DNA of 64,000 nucleotides, from the NCBI GenBank assembly GCA_017482195.1, contig JAFUNM010000006.1, positions 1,184-65,183 on the forward strand, written 5' to 3'. Both the position numbers and the translations under genes were made by a program. Below are positions 3,267 to 23,050 of the stretch, piece after piece. The notes below the pieces were generated by a model. It was not told the origin of the DNA. It searched no databases and saw nothing but the letters and a program-made list of their open reading frames with translations. The stretch's first letter is position 1. Every line of letters starts with the position of its first letter. This stretch comes from Clostridia bacterium (GTDB lineage: Bacteria > Bacillota > Clostridia > Oscillospirales > QAKW01).

Positions 3267-3275
3267 ATTGATAAT

Positions 3276-3445
3276 GATAGAGGTGCACTTGCATCATCAG
3301 TATTTTTGCCTATGGCGCTTTGCCGAAAGCGAGGCAGGAAGAAAGGGATGGGTGCCGAAGACGGTTTACGGCAAAAAACCGATCTGGCAGCAGAAAATAA
3401 GAGTTCTGTTGCTGTCGCAGGAACTGCGGAGCGCTATCTTCCTAT
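3276..3445 (+). promoter_or_regulatory. Lysine riboswitch (L-box)
   Basis: GATAGAGGTGC at the 5' end, an AGTAT loop-E-like element, GAAAGGGATGGGTGCCGAAG core, and 3' GCTGTCGCAGGAACTGCGGAGCGCTATCT. These match the conserved L-box blocks of the B. subtilis lysC and T. maritima leaders (AGAGGUGC ... GUCGCCGAAG ... CUGUCA..GGAGAGCU). It sits upstream of dapA-dapB-lysC-lysA. The track ORF 3238..3525 is therefore not coding. Confidence 0.85.
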
Positions 3446-3537: not shown

Positions 3538-4425
3538 ATGTCCAAAACAATTTTTAAAGGTGTTGCTACTGCTCTGGTGACCCCCATGAATAAGATGGGT
3601 ATAGACTATGAAAACTACGGCAAGCTGCTGAACTGGCAGATCGAAAGCGGCATCAATGCCTTAGTGGCTGCCGGCACCACCGGCGAAGGCTCCACCATGA
3701 GCGATAAAGAGCATCGGGAAATGTTGGAATTCACCATCCGTACCGTAGACGGCAGAGTGCCGGTCATCGCCGGTACCGGCTCCAACGATACCGCCTATGC
3801 TATTGAACTGAGTAAATTCGCCTGCAGCGCAGGAGCCGACGGTCTTTTGATGGTCACGCCTTACTACAACAAAGCCACCCAGGGCGGTTTGATCAAATCT
3901 TATACCGCCGTTGCCGATGTGGTGGATAAGCCCATTATTCTCTATAATGTTCCCTCCCGTACCGGCTGCAACATTCTGCCTGCCACCTGTGCAAAATTGG
4001 CAGAGCATCCCAATATCGCTGCCATCAAAGAGGCCAGCGGAAATATCTCCCAAATTGCTGATACTGCTGCTCTGGTAAAGGGCAAGATGGATATTTATTC
4101 CGGTAACGACGATCAGATCGTACCCATTATGTCTTTAGGCGGTATGGGTGTTATCTCCGTTCTTTCCAATGTATTTCCCAGGGAGACGGTGGAACTGTGT
4201 GACCGGTTCTTCAAAGGCGATCTTGTCGGTGCCTGTGAGATGCAGCTGCACTATCTGCCTTTGATCCACGCCCTTTTCAGCGAAGTCAATCCCATCCCCG
4301 TAAAGGCTGCCATGGCCGCCATGGGATTCGGTGAAAATTACCTGCGGTTGCCGCTGACTCCCATGGAGCCGGAAAATGAGGCAAAGCTCTTAAAACTGAT
4401 GCAGGATGAGGGCTTGAAGGTATGA
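3538..4425 (+). CDS. dapA: 4-hydroxy-tetrahydrodipicolinate synthase
   Basis: AAGTTGEGSTMS, MVTPYYNK, ILYNVPSRTG and AAIKEASGN (Schiff-base Lys context). RBS GAGGAGG lies upstream. Confidence 0.95.
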   Translation: MSKTIFKGVATALVTPMNKMGIDYENYGKLLNWQIESGINALVAAGTTGEGSTMSDKEHREMLEFTIRTVDGRVPVIAGTGSNDTAYAIELSKFACSAGADGLLMVTPYYNKATQGGLIKSYTAVADVVDKPIILYNVPSRTGCNILPATCAKLAEHPNIAAIKEASGNISQIADTAALVKGKMDIYSGNDDQIVPIMSLGGMGVISVLSNVFPRETVELCDRFFKGDLVGACEMQLHYLPLIHALFSEVNPIPVKAAMAAMGFGENYLRLPLTPMEPENEAKLLKLMQDEGLKV

Positions 4426-5165
4426 AGATCATCATCTACGGCGTAGGCGGCCGGATGGGCAAAGAAGTAGCCAAGCTGGCAGAGGAAGGTGTACGCAATG
4501 CCTCTCTTCACGCAGGGGTAGACATCGGCGGAAACGACAGCGGTTTTCCCTGCTTTGCCACTTTAGAGCAGGTGCCTCAAGGAGCCGACTGCATCATTGA
4601 TTTTTCCCATCATTCAGCCACCAGAGCGCTTCTGAACTATGCCAAAAAAGCAAAAATACCGGTGGTTCTTTGCACCACCGGACATACCGAGAAAGAGCTC
4701 TCTCTTATTGAGGAGACCGCCAAGGAGATCCCGATCTTTTTCTCGGCTAACATGTCGGTAGGTGTGGCCCTTTTAGCAGAGCTTGCTAAAAAAACCGCCT
4801 CCATCTATCCCCACGCAAACATCGAGATCGTGGAGACCCATCACAACCGCAAGCTGGATGCCCCCAGCGGTACGGCACTGATGATCGCCAAAGCCATCAA
4901 GGAGGTCCGTAAGGCGGCCAACTTTATGATGGGCCGCAGCGGACAAGCCAAGCGCACCGAGGAGGAGATCGGCATTCACGCCATCCGGATGGGCAATATT
5001 GTGGGCACTCACGAGGTATTGGTGGGCACCGACAATGAGACCATCACCTTAAAGCATGAGGCTCACAGCCGTTCACTTTTTGCCGACGGCGCCATGGCCG
5101 CCGCAGAGTTTCTCTGCAAGCAGCCTGCCGGGCTTTACAATATGCACGATATGATTGTACTCTAA
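4422..5165 (+). CDS. dapB: 4-hydroxy-tetrahydrodipicolinate reductase
   Basis: MKIIIYGVGGRMG (NAD(P) fold) and VETHHNRKLDAPSGTAL signature. ATGA overlap with dapA. Confidence 0.93.
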   Translation: MKIIIYGVGGRMGKEVAKLAEEGVRNASLHAGVDIGGNDSGFPCFATLEQVPQGADCIIDFSHHSATRALLNYAKKAKIPVVLCTTGHTEKELSLIEETAKEIPIFFSANMSVGVALLAELAKKTASIYPHANIEIVETHHNRKLDAPSGTALMIAKAIKEVRKAANFMMGRSGQAKRTEEEIGIHAIRMGNIVGTHEVLVGTDNETITLKHEAHSRSLFADGAMAAAEFLCKQPAGLYNMHDMIVL

Positions 5166-5183
5166 AAGGAGTTTAACGAATTC

Positions 5184-6506
5184 ATGGTTAAAGTTTTGAA
5201 ATTCGGCGGCAGTTCTCTTGCAGACGCTGAGCAGTTCCGCAAGGTAGCCGCCATCATCAACGCAGAACCGGAGCGGCGGTATGTGGTTGCATCCGCCCCC
5301 GGCAAGCGTTTCTTTGAGGATGAAAAGGTCACGGACCTGCTGCTGCATTGCCATGCATTGGCCACCGACCGCAATCCCTTTGATGAGACCTTCCGCCGCA
5401 TCAGCGACCGGTTCAACGGCATCATCAAGGATCTGGGTCTTTCCCTCAATATTCAGCCGGAGCTGGATCAGGTCAAAGAAGCGATTCAAAACGGAATCGG
5501 CAAGGATTATGTTGCCAGCCGGGGTGAATACTTCAATTCCATGATCTTAGCAGACTTTTTGCAGGTTCCCTTCCTAGATGCCGCTGAGTGCATCTTCTTC
5601 GGAAACGACGGAAAGCTGGACTCCAAAAAGACTCATACGGTATTGGAGAATCGCTTAGCCATGATGCCCCGGGCTGTCATTCCCGGATTTTACGGCATTC
5701 TGCCCGGCGGCGAGATCAAAACCTTCTCCCGGGGAGGCTCCGATATTACCGGCTCTATTGTGGCAGAAGCCATTGAGGCAGACATTTACGAAAACTGGAC
5801 GGATGTATCGGGGATGCTGATGGCAGACCCCCGCATCATCGACAATCCTGCACCCATTGACATTATCACCTACCGGGAGCTGCGGGAGCTTTCTTACATG
5901 GGAGCCACCGTACTCCATGAGGATGCAGTATTTCCGGTACGCAGAAGCGGTATTCCTATCAATATCCGCAACACCAACCGACCTGAGGACAAGGGCACCA
6001 TGATCGTCTCCCACACTGAGGAGAAGAGCAAGGATCGCATCATCACCGGTGTTGCCGGGAAGACCGGCTTCACCGCCATCTATATCGAGCGGGATATGAT
6101 GAACTCCGAGTTAGGCTACGGCCGCAGAGTCTTAGAGACCTTGGAGCGCAGAGGCATCAATTTTGAGCATCTGCCCTCCGGTATTGATACAGTAACCGTG
6201 GTGGTCAACAGTAAGGAACTGGAAGGCAAGCTGGATCTTGTGGTCGCCGATCTGAAACGGGCTGTTCGGCCCGACACCATCCGGGTCTATGAGGATCTGG
6301 CCATGGTAGCGGTGGTCGGCCGCGGCATGATCAGTGAACCCGGTGTTGCTGCTAAAGTCTTTACCGCACTGGCAAAGGAACACATCAATATCCGGATGAT
6401 CGACCAGGGTTCCAGTGAGTTAAACATTATCGTAGGTATTGCAGCAAAGGATTATCTGACCGCACTCAAAGCAATCTATAAGGAATTTGAACCGAAAAAA
6501 CTATGA
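5184..6506 (+). CDS. lysC: Aspartate kinase
   Basis: MVKVLKFGGSSLADAE N-terminal kinase motif, C-terminal ACT-like region (MVAVVGRGM ... NIRMIDQGSSELNI). RBS AAGGAG. Confidence 0.9.
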   Translation: MVKVLKFGGSSLADAEQFRKVAAIINAEPERRYVVASAPGKRFFEDEKVTDLLLHCHALATDRNPFDETFRRISDRFNGIIKDLGLSLNIQPELDQVKEAIQNGIGKDYVASRGEYFNSMILADFLQVPFLDAAECIFFGNDGKLDSKKTHTVLENRLAMMPRAVIPGFYGILPGGEIKTFSRGGSDITGSIVAEAIEADIYENWTDVSGMLMADPRIIDNPAPIDIITYRELRELSYMGATVLHEDAVFPVRRSGIPINIRNTNRPEDKGTMIVSHTEEKSKDRIITGVAGKTGFTAIYIERDMMNSELGYGRRVLETLERRGINFEHLPSGIDTVTVVVNSKELEGKLDLVVADLKRAVRPDTIRVYEDLAMVAVVGRGMISEPGVAAKVFTALAKEHINIRMIDQGSSELNIIVGIAAKDYLTALKAIYKEFEPKKL

Positions 6507-7801
6507 TTTGTAAAAACTTAACCATCAGCACCGAAGGACATCTGCTCTTTGCCGGGCAGGATGTGGCATCTTTGCTCCGTGAATACGGCTCTCCCCTCTA
6601 TCTTTTTGACGAGGATCGCATCCGAGAAAACTGCCGAACTTATTATAACGCCATGAAAGAGGCCTTCGGCGAGAAGGCGCTCCCCCTTTATGCCAGCAAG
6701 GCAGCCTCCTTTAAGGAGATCTACCGCATCGTGAACAGCGAGCAGTTGGGAATTGATGTGGTATCCTGCGGAGAGATCTATACCGCAAAAGCGGCAGGCT
6801 TTGATTTGTCAAAGACTTATTTCCACAGCAACAACAAAACCGATGAGGATATTGCTTTTGCCATTGAAAATGGAATCGGCTACTTTGTGGCAGACAACGA
6901 AGAAGAACTTTATGCCGTTGACCGCATTGCCGCTGAAAAAGGCATTTGCCAGAAGATCTTACTGCGGCTGACCCCCGGCATCGACACTCATACCTATGAA
7001 GCCATCAACACCGGCAAGGTAGACTCCAAATTCGGGTCTGCCATCGAGACCGGACAGGCAGAAGCAATCACCAAGCTCGCTCTGAAACTGCCTCATCTGC
7101 AGTTGATGGGGTTCCATTGCCATGTCGGCTCCCAGGTATTTGACTCCGACACCTTCTTCCGTTCGGCGGAGATCATGCTGAATTTTATGGCCGAGATGGC
7201 AAAAAAGCATCATTATATTGCCGAGGAACTGGATCTGGGCGGCGGCTACGGAGTACGCTATACGGAAAGCGATCCTACCATTGATATTGCCGCCAACATC
7301 CATCAGGTAGCGGACTGTGTAAAAACAAAATGCGCAGCATTGGGTCTCCCCCTCCCTGCTATCCGGCTGGAGCCGGGCAGAAGCATCGTTGCCGATGCCG
7401 GACTGACCCTTTACACAGTGGGCACCATCAAGCAGATCCCCGGATACAAAAACTATGTTTCGGTGGACGGCGGCATGACTGACAATCCCCGCTTTGCCCT
7501 TTATAATGCGCCATACACGGTGGTAGCGGCCGAAAAAATGAACGAAGAGACGGACTTTCATTGCTCGGTGGTAGGACGCTGCTGTGAAAGCGGCGACATC
7601 ATTCAGGAAAATGTAGCACTCCCCTCCACAATCAAAAGAGGAGATGTACTGGCGGTACTGACCACCGGTGCTTATAACTTCTCCATGGCCTCCAATTACA
7701 ACCGCATCCCCCGTCTGCCGGTGGTGATGCTCAAAGAGGGCACCGCCCGCTTAGTGGTCAAAAGAGAAACTTTAGATGATCTCATACGGAATGACATATA
7801 A
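6503..7801 (+). CDS. lysA: Diaminopimelate decarboxylase
   Basis: Fold-III PLP decarboxylase motifs: YASKA, HCHVGSQ, LDLGGGYGVRY, CESGD, GAYNFSMASNYN. ATGA overlap with lysC. Confidence 0.93.
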   Translation: MICKNLTISTEGHLLFAGQDVASLLREYGSPLYLFDEDRIRENCRTYYNAMKEAFGEKALPLYASKAASFKEIYRIVNSEQLGIDVVSCGEIYTAKAAGFDLSKTYFHSNNKTDEDIAFAIENGIGYFVADNEEELYAVDRIAAEKGICQKILLRLTPGIDTHTYEAINTGKVDSKFGSAIETGQAEAITKLALKLPHLQLMGFHCHVGSQVFDSDTFFRSAEIMLNFMAEMAKKHHYIAEELDLGGGYGVRYTESDPTIDIAANIHQVADCVKTKCAALGLPLPAIRLEPGRSIVADAGLTLYTVGTIKQIPGYKNYVSVDGGMTDNPRFALYNAPYTVVAAEKMNEETDFHCSVVGRCCESGDIIQENVALPSTIKRGDVLAVLTTGAYNFSMASNYNRIPRLPVVMLKEGTARLVVKRETLDDLIRNDI

Positions 7802-7829
7802 AAAGCAGGTGCATAACGCACCTGCTTTT
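7801..7829. terminator. Bidirectional terminator between convergent lysA and the LUD-domain gene
   Basis: AAAAGCAGGTGC ataac GCACCTGCTTTT, a perfect 12-bp stem flanked by an A-run and a T-run. Confidence 0.85.
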
Positions 7830-7832
7830 CTA

Positions 7833-8468
7833 TTAATAGCCTAATGTTTCGTTGACGAGAATAACTTTGATCCGTCCGGCCTGGCGCTGAGGGCCCTGCA
7901 CTAGGTAGCTGCAACAAATCCGCTGAGGGCTGGAACAACCGTCAGTCATATCACCGTCGAGGCCCAGACAATGACCGGTTTCTCTGCAATAGGTATCACA
8001 GGAAAGCCGTTGGGCATTGGCAGGGGCGGCAATGGTTTTAATCCGGCGGATGGCAGCCTCCAGATCGGGAACGATCTTGTTGACACCGGCGATAACAATT
8101 ACCGACTTAGGACCGAAGGTGAGGGCGGCGATACGGTTGGCATTACCGTCTACATTCACCAGTTCACCCTTTTCGGTGATCGCATTGGCCGAACCGAAAA
8201 AGCCATCGGCAGCGAAGGTCTGCTCATAGACCTTGCGAATCTCCTCCGGGGTGATCCCTTCGGCACTGCGGTCTAAAAAATTATAGTATCCGCTCTTCAA
8301 AAGATCCATCACACCGGTTTCCTTAACCGTTTGAGAACCACCCACACTAACGGTGGAGCCTTCCGGCATCAGTTCTTTGACCAGGGGGACAACTTCTTCC
8401 TTGGTCTCAACATAATAAGCCTCCATATGATTCTTTTTCAGGGCTTCTAGAACGGTTTGAATATTCAT
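7833..8468 (-). CDS. LUD-domain (LutC/YkgG-like, DUF162) protein with C-terminal Cys-rich tail
   Basis: MNIQTVLEALKKNHMEAYYVETKEE..., GGSQT, VIVIAGVNKIVPDLEAAIRRIK pattern typical of lactate-utilisation C-like proteins. Cys cluster CDTYCRETGHC...GCSSPQRICCSY. Confidence 0.6.
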   Translation of the reverse strand: MNIQTVLEALKKNHMEAYYVETKEEVVPLVKELMPEGSTVSVGGSQTVKETGVMDLLKSGYYNFLDRSAEGITPEEIRKVYEQTFAADGFFGSANAITEKGELVNVDGNANRIAALTFGPKSVIVIAGVNKIVPDLEAAIRRIKTIAAPANAQRLSCDTYCRETGHCLGLDGDMTDGCSSPQRICCSYLVQGPQRQAGRIKVILVNETLGY

Positions 8469-9122: not shown

Positions 9123-9151
9123 TGAAAAAAGAGGAACCAAAGGGTTCCTCT
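9123..9151 (-). terminator. rpmE terminator
   Basis: AGAGGAACC aaag GGTTCCTCT followed on the minus strand by TTTTTTC. Confidence 0.85.
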
Positions 9152-9157
9152 ATTTCA

Positions 9158-9361
9158 TTACTTATCCAGATTATATCTCTTCTTGAAGCGGTCTACGCGT
9201 CCGCCGGTATCAACCAGCTTCTGCTTGCCGGTAAAGAAAGGATGGCACTTGGAACAAATTTCAACCCGGATCTCGCTCTTGGTGGAACGGGTCTCAAAGG
9301 TATTACCACAGGCACACTTTACAACAGCCTTTTCATAATTGGGATGAATGCCTTCTCTCAT
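9158..9361 (-). CDS. rpmE: 50S ribosomal protein L31 (Zn-ribbon C+ form)
   Basis: [27 protein letters not shown]...[14 protein letters not shown]. The ATG at 9361 is preceded by AGAGGTG. The track start 9415 is an upstream extension. Confidence 0.95.
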
Positions 9362-9405
9362 GATTGTCACCTCTTTTTCGCTTGATACTTCATCATTACT
9401 TAGGT

Positions 9406-9434
9406 ATCTTATCACATTTCATATCTAATGTCAA
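9406..9434 (-). promoter_or_regulatory. rpmE promoter
   Basis: On the minus strand: TTGACA, a 17-nt spacer, then TAAGAT with an upstream TG (extended -10). Confidence 0.6.
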
Positions 9435-9442
9435 ACATTTTT

Positions 9443-10795
9443 TTAAGAATTTTCAGGTCGGACAGGCATCGTTACTACTTCCCGGTAAAGACGGTCGGCG
9501 GGAACGGTGGCACCAAATTGATATACAGCCTGAAAGGCCTCCTCATTGCTGACCAGACGGGCGGTTCCGGTGACATAAACATCCCGGTTGTGCTTAATAA
9601 CGCCCATAGAGGTTTTGCCCATTGCCACATCGTATACATCAACGGCGACTGTAACAGGAGCAGAGAGGGTATCCCCCTGTACACCCAACTGGCCGTTGGT
9701 ATTATCACCCCAAACATAAAGAGTACCGTCGGCGGTAAGAGCAGCGCAGGAATTGCCGTTGACAGAAATTTTGACAACACCTTCTAAAATTTTTTGGTAA
9801 TTGGCATAGTCCCGATTATCGCCGGTGCCCAACTGACCCAGATGATTCCGACCGGCGGCATAAACGATACCGTTTTTAGTAAGAACAATACTAAAATTCC
9901 GACCGGCCTCTGCCTGCCGTACTCCGCTCATCAATTTGATGGGGGTGCTGCTGGCGGCGGTGGTACGGTTGCCCATTTCGGAATAACTGTTGCTGCCGAA
10001 GCCGTAGAGGTTGCCGTAGGCATCCACAACCAATGTATGGGTCTCGCTGACAGAGACGGCAGAAACCTCCTCCAGGATCATCGTACCCTCGGTGCGATTT
10101 CGCTCGGTACCGTCACCCAGGAGTCCAAAGGCATTATAACCCATGGAATAAAGATCGCCTCCGGAAACATAGAACAGATTATTGCTATTGCCGTCAATAA
10201 AAGAACAGTCTCTGCTGATAACCGATTTTTCGAAAGTCGTATCGTCCCGCTCATATTGCAGGTACTCAAAGGTGCCGGAAAGAGTTAGTTTATTTTTTCC
10301 GTCCAACACCGCAAGGAGCCCTTCGCCGCCGGTGATCATAGAGGCCTCCTCATAGGAGAGGCCGTTTCGATAGGAGAAGGTCTCCATCGCATTCCCGTTG
10401 GCATCGGTAGTGACGGTTGCGAACTCCAGATGCCCGTAAACCTTGCCCTTTCCGGTAGTAATATAATAATCATCCTCCACTGCGGTAATGCTCTCGGGCA
10501 AAAAATCGCAGGCCCGCTCGGCATTCTGGGTCTTAAGCGCAGTTTGATATGAATCCACCGGAGAGGTTTCGCTGACAAATTCCTTGAGTTCTGCCTTAGG
10601 AAGTGCCAAAAGCTGCAGTACACCGCCAGCCAGTATAAACAGCACCGCCGCACCGCAATAAAGGCGGCGGAGCAAACGGATCTTTTTACGCACCTTGGCG
10701 CTTTTTTTCTTCATGGAGTTCATAATACTGCCCAGCAGCAAAACCCCAAACAGGGCGGCAAAGCCAAAGCTGATATAACTAACAATCTTCAGCAT
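9443..10795 (-). CDS. Membrane-anchored RCC1-repeat (beta-propeller) protein, paralog B
   Basis: Two N-terminal hydrophobic helices, then repeats LYSMGYNAFGLLGDGT, LYGFGSNSYSEMG, VYAAGRNHLGQLGTGD, LYVWGDNTNGQLG. TAATG overlap with the upstream paralog. Confidence 0.8.
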   Translation of the reverse strand: MLKIVSYISFGFAALFGVLLLGSIMNSMKKKSAKVRKKIRLLRRLYCGAAVLFILAGGVLQLLALPKAELKEFVSETSPVDSYQTALKTQNAERACDFLPESITAVEDDYYITTGKGKVYGHLEFATVTTDANGNAMETFSYRNGLSYEEASMITGGEGLLAVLDGKNKLTLSGTFEYLQYERDDTTFEKSVISRDCSFIDGNSNNLFYVSGGDLYSMGYNAFGLLGDGTERNRTEGTMILEEVSAVSVSETHTLVVDAYGNLYGFGSNSYSEMGNRTTAASSTPIKLMSGVRQAEAGRNFSIVLTKNGIVYAAGRNHLGQLGTGDNRDYANYQKILEGVVKISVNGNSCAALTADGTLYVWGDNTNGQLGVQGDTLSAPVTVAVDVYDVAMGKTSMGVIKHNRDVYVTGTARLVSNEEAFQAVYQFGATVPADRLYREVVTMPVRPENS

Positions 10796-12246
10796 TATGC
10801 CTTCACCTCCTGAACTGTTGCCACCGTACTGAAGCCGCTGTTATCGCGATCCGTACCCAGCTGATAATTCCGACGATCGCCGGCCCCCAAAAGCTTCCCG
10901 CCCTGCGTATAGATCAGGGTGCAGGAGCCGGAGGTATCGAAGAGAGCGGTCTCTTTATGGATAACTGCAGGAGCGGCATAAAACAGCGGATCGCCGCTGC
11001 CCAGTTGATCCACCCGGTTATCCCCCCAACCGTAAAGTTCGGTGCCGAGCAGAGCAAGGGCAGTACTACCGCCTGCATCGATGGCGGTGACACCCACGGG
11101 GATCATCACCTGACCAAAGACCTTGGCAGAGGGCGGGGGAAGCTCTTCTTCGCCGCCCTCGCTATGGACGCCCTCGGCTTCTTCCAGAGGGATCCGTCCC
11201 AATTGACCCAGAGCATTACTGCCTGCGGACCAGACAGTCCCATCGTTTTTCAGCAGCAGAGTGAAATCACTGCCTGCGGCAATATCGCTGCATCCGGTAC
11301 CAATCAGCACCGGAACCGATTGGGTATCGGTGTTGCCCAGTCCAAACTGACCGTATGCATTACTGCCGGTGGCATAAACACTGCCGTCGGCGGTCAAATA
11401 ATACAGAGAACGGGCGGTGACCACGACCTTGGTCACATTCTGCGCCAGGCGGGCATTGGTGTCGGCAATCTTTTCACTCGGCAGCCCCAACTGACCGTAA
11501 ATATTAGAGCCAAACACATAAAGGTTTCCGGTATTTTTGACCACAGCACCTGCGGTTTCCGAGACGGAGAAGTCCTTCACGTCCGGCTCCACCTGCACAA
11601 AGGCATCCAACCAGGCGGCGGTTTGATTGGGAATGATGCCCTTTTGGTTATCGCCCCGGGCATAAAGCACCCCGTCTTTGGTCAGCAAAAAACAGGTATC
11701 TCCTACCGTTTGAACCTTTAATACATTTTCATAAAGCTTTCCGCTCTCATCCAAAGCCGTCATATTCAAAGCGCCCCAGCCATAGAGAGCGCCGCTTTGA
11801 TTAACTGCAAAATTATTCCCGCTGCCTGTAAAAATGCCTGCCACACCGTCGGCAACAGTAGCGGGACAAAGGATCTGCTGATCGCCGGTGCCGGCATTCA
11901 GTTCCTTCTCATGGGCACGGTTTTGCAGATAGGTAGTAAAGCTGGTAGCGAGCAGTGCGCCGCCCACCACGACCACCAAACCCAGAACAAAGATCCAGAC
12001 TACCGCCGGGGAAACAGCAGTCAGCTTTTTAAGGGCCATTTTCACCGGGTTGGTCTCTCCTTCTACCCCTTTGGCATTGGGCAAACAGCAGATGACGATC
12101 AGGCCGATAGCACCAAAAAACAGCGCCAACCAACACCAGGATCGCCTGCGTCCTTTGACAGCGGCGATCTGGACAGCCAAAAAGGTGCAGGTAACGGTAT
12201 AGAAATAAAACAGCACCAGGCCGATGATCAGACCGTATTCCAACAT
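10795..12246 (-). CDS. Membrane-anchored RCC1-repeat (beta-propeller) protein, paralog A
   Basis: Three N-terminal hydrophobic helices, then about 7 RCC1 blades: LYGWGAL, LYARGDNQKG, LYVFGSNIYGQLGL, VYATGSNAYGQFGLGN, VWSAGSNALGQLG, LYGWGDNRVDQLGSG, LLGAGDRRNYQLG. Confidence 0.8.
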   Translation of the reverse strand: MLEYGLIIGLVLFYFYTVTCTFLAVQIAAVKGRRRSWCWLALFFGAIGLIVICCLPNAKGVEGETNPVKMALKKLTAVSPAVVWIFVLGLVVVVGGALLATSFTTYLQNRAHEKELNAGTGDQQILCPATVADGVAGIFTGSGNNFAVNQSGALYGWGALNMTALDESGKLYENVLKVQTVGDTCFLLTKDGVLYARGDNQKGIIPNQTAAWLDAFVQVEPDVKDFSVSETAGAVVKNTGNLYVFGSNIYGQLGLPSEKIADTNARLAQNVTKVVVTARSLYYLTADGSVYATGSNAYGQFGLGNTDTQSVPVLIGTGCSDIAAGSDFTLLLKNDGTVWSAGSNALGQLGRIPLEEAEGVHSEGGEEELPPPSAKVFGQVMIPVGVTAIDAGGSTALALLGTELYGWGDNRVDQLGSGDPLFYAAPAVIHKETALFDTSGSCTLIYTQGGKLLGAGDRRNYQLGTDRDNSGFSTVATVQEVKA

Positions 12247-12259
12247 TCAACTTTCCTCC

Positions 12260-13780
12260 TCATTCACCCAATAAGGTTTTTTCTTCGGCATCCAGGATCG
12301 GGAAGGAAACGGTAACCACCGTTCCTACATGAAGAGTACTCTCGATCTCTAAGCTGCCGCCGTGCAGACGCATGATCTCGTCGGAAATACCAAGACCGAT
12401 ACCGCTGCCGCGTTTTTGAGATTTGCCTTTATAGAACATATCTTTTACATGGGGCAGATCCTCGGCGTCGATCCCTTCGCCGAAGTCCTGCACAATAAAT
12501 AATGCCCGTTGCTCCGCTACCCGGGCGGCGATTTCGATCCGTCCTCCTTTAGGGGAGTGCTTGATGGCATTATCAATAATATTGAAGAAAACCTGCTTGA
12601 CCCGATCTCGATCCACCAGAGCCTGAATGCTGTCTTCCTCAGGAACATACTCAATGATGATCTCCTCGCTCTTAGCACGTTCGGACATCATAAAGACCGT
12701 TTCTTCAAATTCTGCCAGCAGGTCACACTGCTCAACCGTCAGTTTCATATTTCCTGACTGGAGACGGGACATATCCAATAGCTCCTCCACCAGTTTGGAA
12801 AGACGCTCGGTTTCGCTGTAAATGATCTCCACACCCCGATGGGTGGTTTCATCCATTTGCTCCGATGAGGCCAGCATGGTTTCCGTCCAGCCGCGGATCG
12901 CAGTAAGAGGAGTGCGCAGCTCATGGGAGATGGAGGAGATAAACTCATTTTTCAAACGCTCGGTCTGGGACAGCTCCTCCGCCATACGGTTAATGGTTTG
13001 CCCCAGCTGACCGATCTCGTCATTTTTACTATTTTCCTTCACCCGGGCAGTCATATCACCCTCGGTAATTTTCAGGGCCGCATCGTTGATCAAGTTCACC
13101 GGCAATACGATAGATTTAATAAAGTAAGTGCCGGTAAAAGCGGTCAAAGCAACAATAAATAGACCCATGAAAAAGATTCCCAAATTCATATTGGTCAGCG
13201 CCCGATTGACCTGCTCCAAAGAGGACATCATCCGCACGGTACCCACTAATATTCCATCATCGGTATACAGCGGCAGCGAAACGCTGACGATCTGCTCATC
13301 GGCAGAGGCGCTGTAACCGATCCAATGATCGTTTCTTCCGCCCCGGGCGGAGGTTAGGTCGGGAGTCTCATTGATTTCCTCAATAGCAAATCCGGTGGAG
13401 GAAAAGACGATACTGCCGTTTAAGGAAATGACCTGCATTTCCATAACATCCTTATCCTCAAAATCCTCGACCAAGGCCATAAATCCTGCCGAAACGCTAT
13501 GATATTGAGGATAAACATAGCTCTCAAAATACTTGGACATATACTCCCCGCTGGCAGTAAGGGTACTGACGCAGTTATTATAATAAGAATTTTTAATGAT
13601 CGTACTAATGATGGAGAAGGCCAGAACGACCACCAGCAGCGTTACACCGAAGATATTGAGCAGCCAGCGGCGGGTGATGCCGGAAAAAACATGCTTTTTC
13701 AACAGTTCACCGTAGTACTTTCCTTTTTCATAGAGAACAGCGGCCTGGTTTTTCAATTTTTCTAAATATTGCTTATTCAT
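12260..13780 (-). CDS. Sensor histidine kinase (TM - extracytoplasmic loop - TM - HAMP - HisKA - HATPase_c)
   Basis: SHELRTPLTAIRGW (H-box), NIIDNAIKHSP (N-box), DFGEGI (G1), GSGIGLGI (G2). I chose ATG 13780 (MNKQYLEKL), which overlaps the regulator stop as ATGAATAA. Confidence 0.9.
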   Translation of the reverse strand: MNKQYLEKLKNQAAVLYEKGKYYGELLKKHVFSGITRRWLLNIFGVTLLVVVLAFSIISTIIKNSYYNNCVSTLTASGEYMSKYFESYVYPQYHSVSAGFMALVEDFEDKDVMEMQVISLNGSIVFSSTGFAIEEINETPDLTSARGGRNDHWIGYSASADEQIVSVSLPLYTDDGILVGTVRMMSSLEQVNRALTNMNLGIFFMGLFIVALTAFTGTYFIKSIVLPVNLINDAALKITEGDMTARVKENSKNDEIGQLGQTINRMAEELSQTERLKNEFISSISHELRTPLTAIRGWTETMLASSEQMDETTHRGVEIIYSETERLSKLVEELLDMSRLQSGNMKLTVEQCDLLAEFEETVFMMSERAKSEEIIIEYVPEEDSIQALVDRDRVKQVFFNIIDNAIKHSPKGGRIEIAARVAEQRALFIVQDFGEGIDAEDLPHVKDMFYKGKSQKRGSGIGLGISDEIMRLHGGSLEIESTLHVGTVVTVSFPILDAEEKTLLGE

Positions 13781-14474
13781 GGCCCCAACGGTAACCGAAT
13801 CCCCAAACAGTCTGGATATACTGCGGAGAAGACGGATCATCCTCGATCTTGATTCTCAAACGACGGATATTCACATCTACGATCTTATGACGGTCGCCCC
13901 CGAAATTATCGCTCCAAACCTTCCGGAAGATCTCTTCCCGGGAGAAAGCCTTGCCGGGGTGCTCCAAAAAATGCTTCATCAGCTGAAACTCCACCTGGGT
14001 CACCTCGATGGGACGGTCACTTTTGGTCAGCTTACGGCTCTTGACATTCAGTACAAAAGGACCTTCCTTCAGCTCATCGCTATCGGGGATGGCGATCCCC
14101 TTCATCATCTGCACCCGGCGATATAGGTTATCCACCCGCACAGTCAGTTCCAGCGGGGAGAAGGGCTTGGTAACATAATCATCCGCACCGTTCATCAGGC
14201 CTGCTACCTTATCGATCTCCTGGGCTTTAGCGGTAAGCATAATAATACCGATCTTTTGATTGGAGGAACGGATCTTCTGGCAAACCTCCAGCCCGTCGAT
14301 CCCCGGAAGCATCACATCTAACACGGCAATATCAATATCGGGGTTCCGGTCAAAAAGCTCCAATGCTTCCTCCCCGGTGGATGCCTCCACCATTTCATAG
14401 CCTGCCCGCTTTAAGTTCAGTACCACAAAGGCGCGGATGGCTTCTTCGTCTTCTAAAATCAAGATCTTCTTCAT
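13773..14474 (-). CDS. OmpR/PhoB-family response regulator
   Basis: MKKILILEDEE...DIAVLDVMLPGIDG...MLTAK (receiver D/D/K) and C-terminal winged helix VWGFGYRW. AAGGAG RBS. Confidence 0.93.
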   Translation of the reverse strand: MKKILILEDEEAIRAFVVLNLKRAGYEMVEASTGEEALELFDRNPDIDIAVLDVMLPGIDGLEVCQKIRSSNQKIGIIMLTAKAQEIDKVAGLMNGADDYVTKPFSPLELTVRVDNLYRRVQMMKGIAIPDSDELKEGPFVLNVKSRKLTKSDRPIEVTQVEFQLMKHFLEHPGKAFSREEIFRKVWSDNFGGDRHKIVDVNIRRLRIKIEDDPSSPQYIQTVWGFGYRWGHE

Positions 14475-14484
14475 TTTGGACTCC

Positions 14485-15762
14485 TTATCCTATAACACTG
14501 AACAGGCCGTAGACCTGCATGTAGTTGATTCGCATGGAATTATCCGGCTCGCAGTAAACAGCGCAGATATGGTCACTGTCGGAATACAATCGGCGCCAGC
14601 CGGTCTCGCCCAGTTCATTGGAATATTCTGCAAGTGCAAAGATACGAACGGTAAAGAGATTTTCTCCCTTCATCGTTTTAAACACAAAGGAACGGTCAGC
14701 GGTGTTTCCCCGCTCAACGGTGACCTTGCCCACCCAGGAGGAAGGAAAGTCTACCATGATCTTTTCCGTCATATCCACAAAAGAGGCCGATATATCGGTA
14801 AGGGACTTTCCATCGTAATCCGTCCAGCGGGTGAGATAAAGATTCTCGGTAACACCGCTGCGGGTATAGGCAGGCAGCGCCTCCTCTCGGGGAACCTCCA
14901 GGATCCCGTCGCCATTCACATCACGGCAGGTAACCGCTGTATTCCGCATCGTAGCGGTACTTAATTGGGTCAGCAGTTCATTGGTGAGACGGCCTTCCTC
15001 ATTGATGGACAGCACCTCGGTAACGCATTGGCCGTTTTCCTGCTGGCTATCCACATAAACAGCCGGCAAGCCGGCGGTGGTCTTTCCGGTCTCAATGGCC
15101 AGGTAGTCGGTGGTACGGTCATACATGGGAACGGTATTGACTACACCGATCTTTCCGTCCGTCAGCCCCACCAGAGAGGCCGTAACCGACTTCGTGGCGG
15201 AATTACGGCTGATGACCGCCAATTTATTGGGCGCATCCCCCAGCATGGCAAAGCGGGTATACAGACCGGAATAGCGGCTCTCGGCCTCCTTGTCCTCAAT
15301 GGTATAGACATCGTAGCTACCGTCGGTATCCGCATGATATTGCCAACCCACCACGATCTCGGACATTCCGTCACCGTCCATATCACCGAAGGCTACACGG
15401 CCCACAGAGGCGGCCTCACTTTCCCCTTTGGCCAGCATCGCCCAACTCTCCCCTCGGTTTTCCATCACCAAAAAGCAAAGCTGATCCTCCTTGCCGGAGG
15501 GGCGGTAAAAGCAGAGGGCTTCGGTGGTCTTATCGCCGGTGAGATCCACCGAGATGATACCCGTACGGTAAGAGCCTGCCTGGGGATAGACCAACTCATA
15601 CCCTTCTCCGATGGCAGCGTTGATCGCTTGGGAAAGCGCTTCACGGCCTGAACTCATGGCAGGCGGAGTCAGCAGCGTGCGGATCTCCTCGCCGGACATG
15701 GAGCATCCGGAAAGAAACAGCGATATTATTAATATAAATAGGATAAAACTTTTGTTTTTCAT
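14485..15762 (-). CDS. Lipoprotein with FG-GAP/VCBS-like DxDGDG motifs, function unknown
   Basis: MKNKSFILFILIISLFLSGC lipobox from ATG 15762, plus GDMDGDGMSEIVVGW and RDVNGDGILEVP motifs. First gene of the two-component/RCC1 operon. Confidence 0.7.
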   Translation of the reverse strand: MKNKSFILFILIISLFLSGCSMSGEEIRTLLTPPAMSSGREALSQAINAAIGEGYELVYPQAGSYRTGIISVDLTGDKTTEALCFYRPSGKEDQLCFLVMENRGESWAMLAKGESEAASVGRVAFGDMDGDGMSEIVVGWQYHADTDGSYDVYTIEDKEAESRYSGLYTRFAMLGDAPNKLAVISRNSATKSVTASLVGLTDGKIGVVNTVPMYDRTTDYLAIETGKTTAGLPAVYVDSQQENGQCVTEVLSINEEGRLTNELLTQLSTATMRNTAVTCRDVNGDGILEVPREEALPAYTRSGVTENLYLTRWTDYDGKSLTDISASFVDMTEKIMVDFPSSWVGKVTVERGNTADRSFVFKTMKGENLFTVRIFALAEYSNELGETGWRRLYSDSDHICAVYCEPDNSMRINYMQVYGLFSVIG

Positions 15763-15847
15763 ATAATACCCCATAATAATCCATATTAAAAATATTATAC
15801 TATATATATATAATAATTGCAATAATATAAGTTTTTAAAATTGGGTA

Positions 15848-18792: not shown

Positions 18793-20772
18793 TTAGTTTA
18801 CATAGGCTGCCCAAACTGCATTGTTATGATCCAGCCAGAGGGTAACGGTGCCGGCAATGGGCGCTTCGCTATCGTCGGTATAATCAGCAGTCTTGAGGTA
18901 CTTCACTTCGTTGCCGACGATAAAGTAATCATCAGACTCAATGGCGGTCACCTGCAGACGATCTACACCGTAGAGATTGACCTTACCGCCTGCGGTGGTG
19001 GCATATGTGTACCAATCGCCGGGGTTGATCTCACCGGTAGCATTACTGATACGGTCAGTGTCAACGGTCAGATTGACGGTGTTTCCGGTTTCCCGCTCTC
19101 TTGCAACGATATTATAGGACATACCGTCTGCAGCAGGAGTGAGGCTTTCGATCTGGATGGCCGCTTCCTTGGTTTTCATCACTTCCTCCACCGCCAGATA
19201 TGTGGTACGGGTGGAATCCAGAACTGCGATCACAGGACCGGTCATTTCGCTTACCGGACGGCCGCTCTTACTCATAAAATAATGAGGTACATAAGTAGTG
19301 GCCGCAGTTTCCTCTGCGCCTTTACCGGAGAGAATATCTGTATCAGTAAGACCGTATTCATCCAAAACAACAGTACTGCCGGCGGTTATATGAAGCTTAC
19401 CGTTGCTTTCGTAGAAGTTCACGAAATCGCCGGGCTGAGGATTGGCCAATCCGGCAGCCGCGATATCTTTATCCTCATAGGTCATCAGATTGTTATTGTA
19501 GTAATTCAAAATGGAGATATAATTCTCGGAAACATTGACTACCTTACCGGGGATCCACTCTTCTGCCAGAACCAGATCTACATAGGTAGTACCGGTCTGT
19601 ACAAAGGTGAACTTCAGGTTCGGCCGGGCTTTATTTGCACCGGTCACGCTGGTGGTACCGGAATACTGGCTGACCACTTCACTCAGGCGATAAACCGCAT
19701 CGCCGGGCCAAATGTCACCATTAAGATAGAGGGTAGATTGGGGATATACGGAATAGGTCGTACCTTCGATGGAAGCAGTGAAGTAACTATGACCGTAGAA
19801 GGTAATATCGGGGAGCGTGCATTCCACAACGATGGGAGCGGGAATCTCATATGTAATGACCTGCTCATCGTCGGTAATGGTGCCGGAGCCGTCTTTATCC
19901 ATATAAACTACGCGGATGGGGAAGCCGATGCAGGAAGAAAGATCGGCATCCACAGAGAACTGAGCACCGTTCGAAAGAAGGACATCCTCCGTTACTTCAA
20001 AATTCAGCGGAGTTTCGCGGGTGGCACGGATGGTTTGATCGGTAACGGTACAGCCGTAGATCTTCGTGGACAAGCTGTTGAGAGGATTGCCGTCAAAATC
20101 CTTGAACTCGACGAAGGTTTCCTCGGAGATGCTGCCATTAGGATCATAGACCATGGCGCGGGCGACGATCACGGCGGCCTGCTCACGGTTGACGGTCTCG
20201 CTGGAAGCATCCACCTCACTGCCTGTCAGAACTTCATCCTGAAAGGCGGTATAGGCATCGGCATTGTCCTCCTCGGTGGAGATCCCGACCGTTTTTGCGA
20301 TCAGGGTAATAAACTCCTCCCCGGTGATGTTGGCGTTGGGTTGGAACTTTTTATCCGTCACGTACTCAGAATTGATCAGCTGATAGTCCATTGCCCATGC
20401 GAGATAAGGCTTCAACAGAGAAATATCGGAAATATCACCTTCATCGCCGTTTTCATCGAAATCGGTGTTGGTGCTTCCGTACTCGGACAACTCATCATAA
20501 TCATCATGGAGCATCCGATATGCAATCTTGACTGCCTCACCGCGGGTAATGGTAAGCTCAGGCAGGAAGGTATCGTTCTTCAACGCGGAAACGATTCCGA
20601 GAGCATCGGCAAATTTAATATAGACGGTATTGACATCGCTCAGGGTAGTGCCGTATCTTTCGTCAACATCGTCGTAGGTGATTTCTTCATAAACCGCAAA
20701 GGCAGATACGCTCAAGGATGCGATCATCACAACCATAAGAACAGCTGCCAGCAGGCTTTTTAAAGTTCTCAT
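18793..20772 (-). CDS. Secreted cell-surface protein with N-terminal degenerate SLH repeats (possible S-layer/wall protein)
   Basis: Signal peptide MRTLKSLLAAVLMVVMIASLSVSAFA. SLH-like segments ...FLPELTITRGEAVKIAYRML, LKPYLAWAMDYQLI...FQPNANITGEEFITLIAK, VNREQAAVIVARAM. The remaining approx. 450 aa carry no motif I recognise. GGAGG RBS. Confidence 0.6.
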   Translation of the reverse strand: MRTLKSLLAAVLMVVMIASLSVSAFAVYEEITYDDVDERYGTTLSDVNTVYIKFADALGIVSALKNDTFLPELTITRGEAVKIAYRMLHDDYDELSEYGSTNTDFDENGDEGDISDISLLKPYLAWAMDYQLINSEYVTDKKFQPNANITGEEFITLIAKTVGISTEEDNADAYTAFQDEVLTGSEVDASSETVNREQAAVIVARAMVYDPNGSISEETFVEFKDFDGNPLNSLSTKIYGCTVTDQTIRATRETPLNFEVTEDVLLSNGAQFSVDADLSSCIGFPIRVVYMDKDGSGTITDDEQVITYEIPAPIVVECTLPDITFYGHSYFTASIEGTTYSVYPQSTLYLNGDIWPGDAVYRLSEVVSQYSGTTSVTGANKARPNLKFTFVQTGTTYVDLVLAEEWIPGKVVNVSENYISILNYYNNNLMTYEDKDIAAAGLANPQPGDFVNFYESNGKLHITAGSTVVLDEYGLTDTDILSGKGAEETAATTYVPHYFMSKSGRPVSEMTGPVIAVLDSTRTTYLAVEEVMKTKEAAIQIESLTPAADGMSYNIVARERETGNTVNLTVDTDRISNATGEINPGDWYTYATTAGGKVNLYGVDRLQVTAIESDDYFIVGNEVKYLKTADYTDDSEAPIAGTVTLWLDHNNAVWAAYVN

Positions 20773-21088: not shown

Positions 21089-22843
21089 TTACTGTGCAAA
21101 GGCAATACAGTCTTTGACTGCCTGCTCCACAACATTTTCCACTTTGGTATGGACGGTCTGATAATTAAGATTCTTATCAATGATCGCCCAGATCAAGCCT
21201 TCGCCTTCCTTACGCATTGCATCGAAGTTGGCGCCGTCCAGGAAACGCCACTCAAACATCTGCAGTCCGAAGTAGGTATTCTCGATCGCGAACTCAAAAT
21301 ACTCCTTCTTCTGTGCATAGGTAAAGCTATATGCTTGCTGGTTCGTGAAGTAATCAAACATAGCTTCGGTGAAGCGGGTCGCCCACAGCTCCATGAACTT
21401 CACGGCATACGGAATATTGGACTGGTTCTTGACCTTCTTGGGAATTTCCATACAATAGCCGATGTTGAAAGCAACATATTGGCCGTCTTCATAGGGAGAC
21501 TTGGGGAAGGGAACCCAATTATACCGATGGTTCTTCGTATATTCAAAATTATTCAGATCCTGCATTAGAATGGACTTTGTAGCCATCATAACCGAACCTT
21601 CACTGTACATTTCGGTTTCATTACCATCGCCGTAACCTGAGTTAGGCAGACTCTTGATAACATCGGTATAGAAGTTCATTGCCTGGAGCGTTCTTTCATC
21701 CATCCAGTTATTGATCAGGTTCATTTTTTCGCTCTCATTGTCCAGACCGATGGTATACACACCGTTGGTCATGGGCCAGTAGAACCAGTCACGGTTGATG
21801 GAATTTGCCATGGGAGTCAACGCCTTACCGTCGTTGGTAGTGCTGGGAACGCTGGTTACAAAATTACGCCATGCATTCCAATCCCACTGATCGTTCTTCC
21901 AAAGGGTATGGGGATCCTGCAGACCCAGCTCTTCCACCATGGTCTGATTGTACCAAAGCACGTCAATGGTACCGATGGGAGAGATACAGCGATAGCCGCC
22001 GCCGTATTTGGTCTGCTCCAGGGTCATCAGGTCTACGCCGGGAGAATTGCCGAGATTCTGCATATTGATGTAGGGATCCAGAGGCTGAGACAAATTCAGG
22101 AACTGGGGGAATCCACCGATATGGGTGGGAATGATATCCAGAGCTTTACCTGCATTCATATAGGTCAGACACTGGTTGATACTGTCCGTAAAACGGGAAG
22201 CGATATACTTAATGTTAAGGCCGTATTCGCTCTTCATGGCCTCAAACCAAGCCCATTCGTCCACCGTCTCACCTTTTTCGTTCCGATACTCCCAAACACC
22301 GTAACGCAGCGCGGTGATAAGAGTAAAGGTCTTGCCCTTCAAATCCGCCAGCTTGACGTTGTTCTTAACGAAGCCGGTGGAGTCGATATCGAAAGAGGGG
22401 TTGATACCGGTATTGTTCTGTTTGGTCTCTGCCAACAGCGGGTTATGAGCCACTTCATACTTCTTGGTCTCATCGTACTGCTGAACAACCTCATCCTGCG
22501 TGCTGGGAGCGGGTTCTGTCACCTTATCTCCGTCCGTGCCGTCGGAAGAGTTATCCTTGTTGCTATCCTTATCGGATCCGCTATCCTTATCGGAGCCGCT
22601 GTCCTTATCGGAGCCGCTGTCCTTATCGGAATCGGAATCCTTATCGGAATCGCCGTCTACTGCAGTATCCCCGTCGGAATCGCTGTCGCCATCGCCATCG
22701 CCGCTTTCATCGTTGCCAAAGGAATCCCCATCGCTTTGGAGAGTTTCCCACTCATCTTCGTCGCTCTGCTTACAAGCGGTAGCCATGGTCACCAGCATCA
22801 ACACAGCCAGGATCACTGCCAATACTTTGCAAAACTTGTTCAT
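21089..22843 (-). CDS. Extracellular solute-binding lipoprotein (family-1, LplA-like sugar-binding type) with acidic Asp/Ser/Gly/Lys-rich repeat linker
   Basis: MNKFCKVLAVILAVLMLVTMATAC lipobox from ATG 22843 (GGAGA RBS). Low-complexity linker DGDSDKDSDSDKDSGSDKDSGSDKDSGSDKDSNKD. The roughly 450-aa body has the W/Y-rich pattern of large oligosaccharide SBPs. No permease or ATPase genes are adjacent. Confidence 0.6.
   Translation of the reverse strand: MNKFCKVLAVILAVLMLVTMATACKQSDEDEWETLQSDGDSFGNDESGDGDGDSDSDGDTAVDGDSDKDSDSDKDSGSDKDSGSDKDSGSDKDSNKDNSSDGTDGDKVTEPAPSTQDEVVQQYDETKKYEVAHNPLLAETKQNNTGINPSFDIDSTGFVKNNVKLADLKGKTFTLITALRYGVWEYRNEKGETVDEWAWFEAMKSEYGLNIKYIASRFTDSINQCLTYMNAGKALDIIPTHIGGFPQFLNLSQPLDPYINMQNLGNSPGVDLMTLEQTKYGGGYRCISPIGTIDVLWYNQTMVEELGLQDPHTLWKNDQWDWNAWRNFVTSVPSTTNDGKALTPMANSINRDWFYWPMTNGVYTIGLDNESEKMNLINNWMDERTLQAMNFYTDVIKSLPNSGYGDGNETEMYSEGSVMMATKSILMQDLNNFEYTKNHRYNWVPFPKSPYEDGQYVAFNIGYCMEIPKKVKNQSNIPYAVKFMELWATRFTEAMFDYFTNQQAYSFTYAQKKEYFEFAIENTYFGLQMFEWRFLDGANFDAMRKEGEGLIWAIIDKNLNYQTVHTKVENVVEQAVKDCIAFAQ
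22565..22654 (-). repeat. In-frame 18-bp tandem repeat (5 units) encoding the (S/G)DKDS(D/G) linker
   Basis: The units are atccttatcggatccgct, atccttatcggagccgct, gtccttatcggagccgct, gtccttatcggaatcgga and atccttatcggaatcgcc. Confidence 0.9.
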
Positions 22844-22874: not shown

Positions 22875-22903
22875 ATTATATAACATTTACATTGGAATTT
22901 CAA
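22875..22903 (-). promoter_or_regulatory. Promoter of the solute-binding lipoprotein gene
   Basis: On the minus strand: TTGAAA, a 17-nt spacer, then TATAAT. Confidence 0.6.
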
Positions 22904-23050
22904 GGAAATAAATCATAATGTAAACAAAATGTAAAGAAAAGTTGGCAAAATACACAAAAATTGGTTGCGTTTTTTGTTTTCGGTCATTTTTTGTAAAAAA
23001 TGCGAGATGCTTCAAGCACACCGTATTTGTATTTTTTGCAGGTTACTGCG

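Follow-up and report, generated by a model that had tools for sequence, protein, structure and literature searches.

Genes for two RCC1-propeller membrane proteins adjoin a Wal-like two-component system in a clade of uncultured gut Clostridia

The minus strand of a 64-kb window (the whole stretch of DNA analysed here, from an uncultured gut Clostridia bacterium) contains at positions 9443-15762 a cluster of five genes, which encode a lipoprotein, a response regulator, a sensor histidine kinase and two membrane proteins with RCC1-repeat propellers, RCC1A and RCC1B. This arrangement raises the question of whether the RCC1 proteins are part of the sensing device of the kinase or a separate entity that shares its expression. 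A first-pass annotation of the sequence had described the two-component system as hard-wired to the propellers. This wording overstates the link, because each of the two modules is also found without the other nearby and because, within the clade, the genes flanking the cluster are conserved equally well. The explanation that we narrowly favour is a composite operon of two separable modules, in which an RCC1 membrane hetero-complex would be co-expressed with an envelope-sensing system.

The five minus-strand open reading frames (ORFs) described in the first-pass annotation were confirmed by an ORF check, and so were the gaps and overlaps between them, which can be read directly from the sequence; its product identities agree with Pfam, and all of the RCC1 motifs that it quoted are present. 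The WalA-like lipoprotein (14485..15762, 425 amino acids (aa)), with an FG-GAP/VCBS-type β-propeller, starts at the ATG of MKNKSF, the mechanical ORF beginning earlier, at a TTG at 15822. After a gap of 10 nucleotides (nt), and with an AAGGAG motif that overlaps the TAA stop codon of the lipoprotein gene, follows the gene for an OmpR-family response regulator (13773..14474, 233 aa; Pfam), which shares an 8-nt overlap, ATGAATAA, with the gene for the histidine kinase (12260..13780, 506 aa; Pfam and transmembrane (TM) helices). A 13-nt gap carrying GGAGG separates the kinase gene from that of RCC1A (10795..12246, 483 aa), which overlaps the gene of RCC1B (9443..10795, 450 aa) by 1 nt in the sequence TAATG; both RCC1 proteins were assigned by Pfam and AlphaFold2. 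The same −8 and −1 overlaps are found again across nearly all of the related loci and are almost invariant within the clade, and for this reason the tight packing is not a product of chance. Promoters and terminators were predicted by consensus scans of the minus strand. A promoter-like site, TTGCAA-17-TATAAT (15794..15822), with 10 of 12 consensus matches, is predicted 5' of the lipoprotein gene, between it and the divergent rpsO. Within the cluster, the minus-strand scan detected no terminator-like site with more than five G-C pairs, and no kinase-proximal promoter was predicted by the consensus scan. Tight junctions, overlaps that are kept in relatives and the lack of a strong predicted internal terminator support the earlier proposal of a single transcript, and it is very likely from the sequence that the five genes are transcribed together.

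Related loci were retrieved by a genome scan with an alignment of closer lipoprotein homologues (A2), using one genome per species. The scan yielded 32 loci, mostly from the same clade, and four more were added via protein identity; synteny within the clade was counted over 24 non-redundant evaluable loci, including the window. The gene order of the clade is pnp, rpsO (divergent), lipoprotein, regulator, kinase, (PAP2), RCC1A, RCC1B, rpmE, HAD and LUD, and in the window the cluster likewise lies between the divergent rpsO-pnp and a group made up of rpmE, a HAD hydrolase gene and the gene for a LUD-domain protein. The sensor triad of lipoprotein, regulator and kinase adjoins the RCC1 pair in 24 of the 24 evaluable loci, which supports co-transcription throughout the clade. 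The functional meaning of this synteny is small, because all of the flanking genes (pnp, rpsO, rpmE, HAD, LUD) are equally kept. A gene for a PAP2-family phosphatase lies between kinase and RCC1A in 15 loci; RCC1A is also present in 14 of them, and in 10 of these 14 the PAP2 gene overlaps the RCC1A start. The sub-clade of the window has no PAP2 gene, and the gap between kinase and RCC1A measures 11-35 nt there. The PAP2 protein may be a lipid-carrier or phospholipid phosphatase tied to the envelope sensor. In several loci the PAP2 gene also overlaps the kinase stop codon; the gene is located at 7478-8008 in locus L003 and at 13408-13959 in locus L036.

Beyond the clade the two modules come apart in both directions. 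The triad keeps its gene order in five different genomic contexts. A sister clade (L034-L036; lipoprotein 30-33% and regulator 73-77% identical) has the order lipoprotein-regulator-kinase-PAP2, and in L036, the sole locus of this clade that is long enough to judge, PAP2 is followed by a convergent mfd and RCC1 genes are absent. Likewise without RCC1 genes, the triad is found after cdaA and before DUF1385 and prmC (L038/L043), or after genes for FHA, FtsW/RodA and transpeptidase proteins (L040); L042 provides yet another context. Conversely, a 136-kb contig (L046) contains a divergent purA followed by RCC1A-RCC1B-rpmE, with RCC1A 34% and rpmE 91% identical; genes for a regulator, a kinase or a lipoprotein are absent within 7 kb of this RCC1 pair. 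In L037, an AT-rich intergenic region and then a divergently oriented gene lie 5' of RCC1A-RCC1B-rpmE, and a kinase gene is not found directly upstream. The RCC1A proteins of both loci keep the conserved membrane motifs, and they represent separate lineages, because they are only 42% identical to each other. Thus, the synteny of RCC1 genes and two-component genes that the first-pass annotation expected in relatives holds in every evaluable clade locus and breaks both ways outside it. Since related lineages have either module with the other one not close by, the propellers are probably not an obligate part of the sensing device of the kinase.

The gene for ribosomal protein L31, rpmE, lies directly 3' of RCC1B wherever a lineage carries the RCC1 pair, at a distance of 67-153 nt (RCC1A-RCC1B-rpmE at L037 251-3218 and L046 6986-10085; RCC1B-rpmE at 9158-10795 of the window). 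As L037 and L046 keep rpmE without an adjacent kinase gene, the deeply conserved gene next to the RCC1 pair is rpmE and not the kinase. In the window, rpmE (9158-9361, minus strand) has its own promoter-like site (9434-9406), and the first strong intrinsic terminator (9151-9130) is predicted only after this gene, so that the downstream boundary of the cluster can be placed at 9130..9434.

The lipoprotein has the N-terminus MKNKSFILFILIISLFLSGC and a lipobox, L-S-G-C, which is encoded at nt 15703-15714 and by motif inspection fits the pattern [LVI][ASTVI][GAS]C. The lipobox cysteine, Cys20, is invariant in an alignment of 18 diverse homologues (A1) as well as in A2. Pfam detects an FG-GAP_3 domain (E-value 1.5e-7), and the best PDB matches of the lipoprotein profile are the PL11 β-propeller lyases YesW and YesX, which are weak (E-value 1.5e-4) and cover the profile in part. 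A search of 1.84 billion proteins in representative clusters matched 6,575 representatives, 1,743 of them at E≤1e-30 and these nearly all full length; the few named members of the family come from Oscillospiraceae and unclassified Clostridiales. In every context sampled, the lipoprotein gene precedes those of the regulator and the kinase.

The identification of the latter two as an OmpR-type regulator and a HAMP-HisKA-HATPase kinase was borne out by Pfam. The regulator matches Response_reg (PF00072, 96.3 bits) and Trans_reg_C (PF00486, 87.0 bits), has a mean pairwise identity of 85% across the clade, and its best NCBIfam matches are VanR, RpaB and YycF, all below their cut-offs. The WalR (YycF) equivalog NF040534 comes third behind the VanR and RpaB models, with 199.3 bits against a cut-off of 340. 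The top PDB match of the DNA-binding domain is YycF/WalR of Bacillus subtilis (2d1v, 68.6 bits), very closely followed by OmpR (68.0 bits). An assignment as WalR was not supported by full-length PDB ranking, RegX3, BaeR, RpaA and MtrA all ranking above YycF. The kinase contains HAMP, HisKA and HATPase_c domains and no PAS domain in the Pfam scan, and its two TM helices flank a sensor loop of ~136 aa (nt 13184-13582), which had initially been put at ~150 aa. The loop has a sub-threshold match to dCache_1 (19.4 bits against a cut-off of 45, E-value 8e-4), and an equally weak match was seen in one relative. WalK is the best NCBIfam model of the kinase, over the C-terminal catalytic half only; the Bacillales-type WalK equivalog NF033092 scores 234.5 bits against a cut-off of 725, over profile positions 366-594 only. 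Nor did PDB ranking support an assignment of the kinase as WalK, since generic catalytic cores only were matched. A scan of the window for WalR boxes (TGTWAH-N5-TGTWAH) gave seven matches where 4.2 were expected, a non-significant excess, and none upstream of the operon. Three WalR-box-like direct repeats, one of them exact (TGTAAACAAAATGTAAA), occur within 60 bp at 22875-22935, directly 5' of another lipoprotein gene (21089-22843, minus strand), the product of which has an Asp/Ser-rich linker.

The architecture of the triad resembles that of the wal operon of Clostridioides difficile. The operon walA-walR-walK-truA2 of this species starts with a gene for a lipoprotein with a predicted 'beta-propeller lyase domain', its kinase WalK has an external Cache domain, HAMP, HisKA and HATPase domains and no PAS domain, and its 3' end carries unrelated genes, truA2 among them (Muh, Ellermeier & Weiss 2022, PMC9210968). 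The window shares the order lipoprotein, regulator, kinase; a propeller-lyase-like lipoprotein (here by FG-GAP_3 and the weak YesW/YesX PL11 match); a kinase with HAMP, HisKA and HATPase domains and without PAS, the loop of which may be Cache-like, from the sub-threshold dCache_1 match; and the presence of additional 3' genes, which are RCC1A and RCC1B (and PAP2 in relatives) instead of truA2. These likenesses make the two-component part Wal-like in architecture, with modest support from the PDB and NCBIfam matches of its proteins. While WalA was called unique to C. difficile (PMC9210968), the lipoprotein family described here comprises 1,743 clusters at the stringent threshold, and the statement would need revising if WalA belongs to this family.

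RCC1A and RCC1B are, as first described, two paralogous proteins with complete propellers, which is supported by Pfam, AlphaFold2 and Foldseek alike. RCC1A matches RCC1 (PF00415, 81.5 bits, cut-off 21.7), RCC1_2 (PF13540, 95.2 bits, cut-off 22) and WD40_RLD (PF25390, 154.6 bits, cut-off 150); RCC1B matches RCC1 (88.5 bits, cut-off 21.7) and RCC1_2 (80.9 bits), with WD40_RLD (128.1 bits) below the cut-off of 150. AlphaFold2 models built on the family alignments show complete seven-bladed RCC1 propellers, with pLDDT (predicted local distance difference test) values of 86.9 for RCC1A and 89.1 for RCC1B. The best Foldseek matches of both models are UVR8, RPGR, HERC2 and RCC1 (E-values of ~1e-24, target TM-scores of 0.7-0.77), and the secreted bacterial member of this fold and repeat family, BLIP-II, is matched at ranks 43 and 45. 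What RCC1A and RCC1B add to these propellers is an N-terminal membrane part of two to three TM segments with family-specific conserved loops, and an obligate pairing of their genes. Pfam at E≤10 found nothing meaningful in the N-terminal membrane regions. The initial count of two to three N-terminal TM helices for each protein covers the correct range, and can be refined to three hydrophobic segments in RCC1A and two in RCC1B. RCC1A consists of the three segments (nt 11935-12246), with conserved KGRRRxWGW and LPNAKGVxGETNP loops, a stalk and the propeller (nt 10813-11877), and RCC1B of a TM hairpin (nt 10601-10795), the loop of which is very basic, and the propeller (nt 9521-10498). The membrane part of RCC1A is better conserved than its propeller (61-64% vs 51% mean pairwise identity); the pattern of RCC1B is the opposite, its propeller being better kept than its membrane part. 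The two proteins are distant paralogues (23-33% identity) with the same narrow distribution: RCC1A has ~68 full-length relatives (39-79% identity), all from metagenome-assembled genomes of uncultured Clostridia, beyond which search scores drop to generic RCC1 proteins, and RCC1B has ~69 clusters. One propeller loop of RCC1A contains a low-complexity acidic or Lys/Glu-rich insertion (window 11140-11200, residues ~351-375, pLDDT <60), the length of which varies among orthologues from ~10 to >50 residues.

The first-pass annotation placed both propellers outside the cytoplasm, which is upheld for RCC1B, by its basic loop, and is in doubt for RCC1A, where the charge rules conflict. In all 27 close-clade rows that were scored, the loop of the RCC1B TM hairpin contains 8-12 Lys or Arg and 0-1 acidic residues. 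With a loop this basic and this poor in acidic residues, the RCC1B propeller can be confidently predicted to lie outside the membrane, facing the cell wall. In RCC1A, loop 1 (KGRRRxWGW) has 4-6 basic residues and loop 2 (LPNAKGVxGETNP...RK) 3-6, with more in the distant homologues L037 and L046. The flanks of TM1 favour an outside N-terminus with loop 1 inside, whereas those of TM3 resemble a type II signal anchor, as the TM2 flanks of RCC1B do. The topology is ambiguous, because these two preferences are incompatible if the protein has three full spans. Positive-inside counting was rejected as a topology call, both loops being basic, and a re-entrant TM2 was rejected because the secondary structure in the AlphaFold2 model shows a single-residue kink in a helix that still spans the membrane. 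BLASTP aligns TM2-loop2-TM3 of RCC1A with TM1-loop-TM2 of RCC1B. Judged from the sequences, the chances of a cytoplasmic and of an external RCC1A propeller appear roughly even.

Evolutionary distance matrices were compared for 20 species, with HAD, LUD and pnp as controls. The matrices of the RCC1 proteins show r values of 0.72-0.86 with the lipoprotein and kinase-sensor matrices, and of 0.50-0.75 with those of the flanking HAD, LUD and pnp; partial r values of ~0.5-0.66 remain for the lipoprotein and kinase sensor when the controls are regressed out. The strongest correlation is that between RCC1A and RCC1B (r 0.92, partial r 0.81). Such mirror-tree correlations are prone to false positives, and they were not taken as evidence of interaction, because the pairs are non-independent and pnp is too conserved as a control. 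As weak evidence, the distance correlations are compatible with either interaction or shared exposure at the cell surface.

Envelope-sensing two-component systems that are co-transcribed with membrane- or lipid-anchored extracytoplasmic accessory proteins are known from walRK-walH-walI (yycFGHI) of B. subtilis and mtrA-mtrB-lpqB of actinobacteria, and these accessory proteins modulate their kinases. MtrB resembles the kinase of the window in being PAS-less, and the accessory protein LpqB is a lipoprotein (PMC9210968). The kinase of the window scores far below the cut-offs of both the WalK and the MtrB equivalogs, and Pfam at E≤0.01 detected no YycH or YycI domain in any of the five proteins. 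RCC1A and RCC1B have no sequence or fold relation to YycH or YycI, the additional genes encoding polytopic RCC1 propellers instead. Propeller sensors that are fused to kinases include those of the hybrid two-component systems of Bacteroides, with Reg_prop twin propellers, and PknD of Mycobacterium tuberculosis, with an NHL propeller. In these cases as in the window, propellers on the outer face are tied to a signalling kinase, and the hybrids likewise have two; there, however, the propellers belong to the same protein as the kinase domains, whereas here they are separate proteins from another repeat family and their signalling role is putative. Literature searches brought up no description of an operon that joins RCC1 propellers to a histidine kinase, in agreement with the first-pass annotation, and the combination of an RCC1 pair with a Wal-like operon appears to be undescribed.

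In the composite operon that we narrowly favour, the first module would be an envelope-sensing two-component system of the C. difficile WalA-WalR-WalK type, with the β-propeller lipoprotein on the outer face of the membrane, the kinase sensing a signal with its Cache-like ~136-aa loop and the OmpR-type regulator as output. The second module would be the translationally coupled RCC1A/RCC1B bicistron for two polytopic membrane proteins with seven-bladed propellers, which most likely act as a membrane hetero-complex with at least the RCC1B propeller facing the cell wall. This module, older and autonomous, would have become attached behind the first in a single clade of uncultured gut Clostridia, with a PAP2 lipid-phosphatase gene between the modules in most relatives and none in the sub-clade of the window. 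Joined in tandem, all genes would be expressed from one promoter and serve the same envelope-homeostasis programme. Several observations weigh against this explanation. Adjacency and tight coupling are perfectly kept within the clade; the RCC1 distances track those of the lipoprotein and kinase better than those of the flanks, as physical partners would; and the most conserved part of RCC1A is its membrane region, as expected if it contacts the kinase or another membrane protein. The stand-alone RCC1 loci number only two, one of which (L037) has only 250 nt of upstream sequence, and the absence of the two-component system near them was judged at the locus. Furthermore, the likeness to WalA, WalR and WalK of C. 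difficile is one of architecture.

RCC1A and RCC1B might instead be dedicated accessories of the kinase, a role that the first-pass annotation suggested by analogy with YycH/YycI. They would then be comparable to WalH/WalI (YycH/YycI) or to LpqB for MtrB, with TM helices docking on those of the kinase and propellers that bind a ligand or protein derived from the wall and adjust the balance of kinase and phosphatase activity. Besides the invariant adjacency, the translational coupling, the well-kept RCC1A membrane region and evolutionary rates that correlate with the lipoprotein and kinase sensor beyond the flanking genes, the external RCC1B propeller, which shares its location with the kinase loop and the lipoprotein, speaks for such a role, and so does the typical presence of lineage-specific genes for membrane accessory proteins in Wal operons (PMC9210968). 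Nevertheless, this explanation, though a live alternative, appears rather unlikely. Two deeper lineages have the RCC1 pair with the same membrane motifs and with no gene for a kinase directly upstream, many lineages have a triad that does without RCC1 genes, neither YycH nor YycI shows any similarity, and the RCC1A propeller may be cytoplasmic; the clade synteny and the mirror-tree correlations add little, since the flanks are equally conserved and the method readily produces false positives. A bolder variant would make RCC1A and RCC1B a heteromeric twin-propeller co-receptor, docked onto the Wal-like kinase via the highly conserved membrane segments of RCC1A, with the RCC1A propeller maybe in the cytoplasm and that of RCC1B outside; it is speculative and on present evidence improbable. 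The separability of the modules in both directions, and rpmE rather than the kinase as the deeper conserved neighbour, would also fit an RCC1 pair that serves an unrelated membrane or wall function and is a passenger on the transcript, as truA2 is in C. difficile's wal operon, where such a passenger gene has been accepted (Muh et al., PMC9210968). A random passenger is, however, a distinctly unlikely explanation, because all six products, PAP2 of the relatives included, are membrane or envelope proteins; in addition, the coupling is kept across an RCC1A divergence of 42-79% identity, and the RCC1 distances correlate with those of lipoprotein and kinase. Finally, the pair might be a two-faced device, in which a cytoplasmic RCC1A propeller and an external RCC1B propeller relay binding outside to a partner in the cytoplasm, which may be the core of the kinase or the regulator. 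The TM1 charge flanks together with three full spans would put the RCC1A propeller into the cytoplasm, TM2 is a kinked spanning helix and not a hairpin in the AlphaFold2 model, RCC1B is robustly outside, and the two genes are always paired. Loop 2 of RCC1A is, though, as basic as loop 1 and more so in L037 and L046, the TM3 flanks resemble a type II signal anchor, and the BLASTP alignment of the TM segments would put both propellers outside, which makes a device of this kind highly improbable.

In Firmicutes, the remodelling of the cell wall is under the control of Wal-type systems, which are regarded as targets for antibiotics, and how the PAS-less, lipoprotein-partnered version of these systems in Clostridia senses its signal is a question that has been raised for C. 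difficile. Triads with this architecture are widespread among Clostridia and, if WalA belongs to the lipoprotein family, provide comparative material for finding key residues. If PAP2 and the RCC1 pair modulate the kinase, they would represent a new kind of accessory and a rare case of an assigned role for bacterial RCC1 repeats, and a twin-propeller co-receptor, if real, would be a new class of RCC1-repeat kinase accessory proteins in this clade of gut Clostridia. Otherwise, the RCC1 pair is still a conserved, uncharacterised envelope module.

Elsewhere in the window, two genes encode large secreted proteins with SLH domains (18793-20772 and 23116-26277, both minus strand), located N-terminally in the 659-aa protein and C-terminally in the 1053-aa protein. 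A surface layer anchored by SLH domains is thus probable in this organism. On the plus strand, a lysine riboswitch (Rfam RF00168, 92.8 bits) at 3270-3444 precedes the lysine genes at 3538-7801, which comprise dapA, dapB, an aspartokinase gene with ACT domains and lysA.

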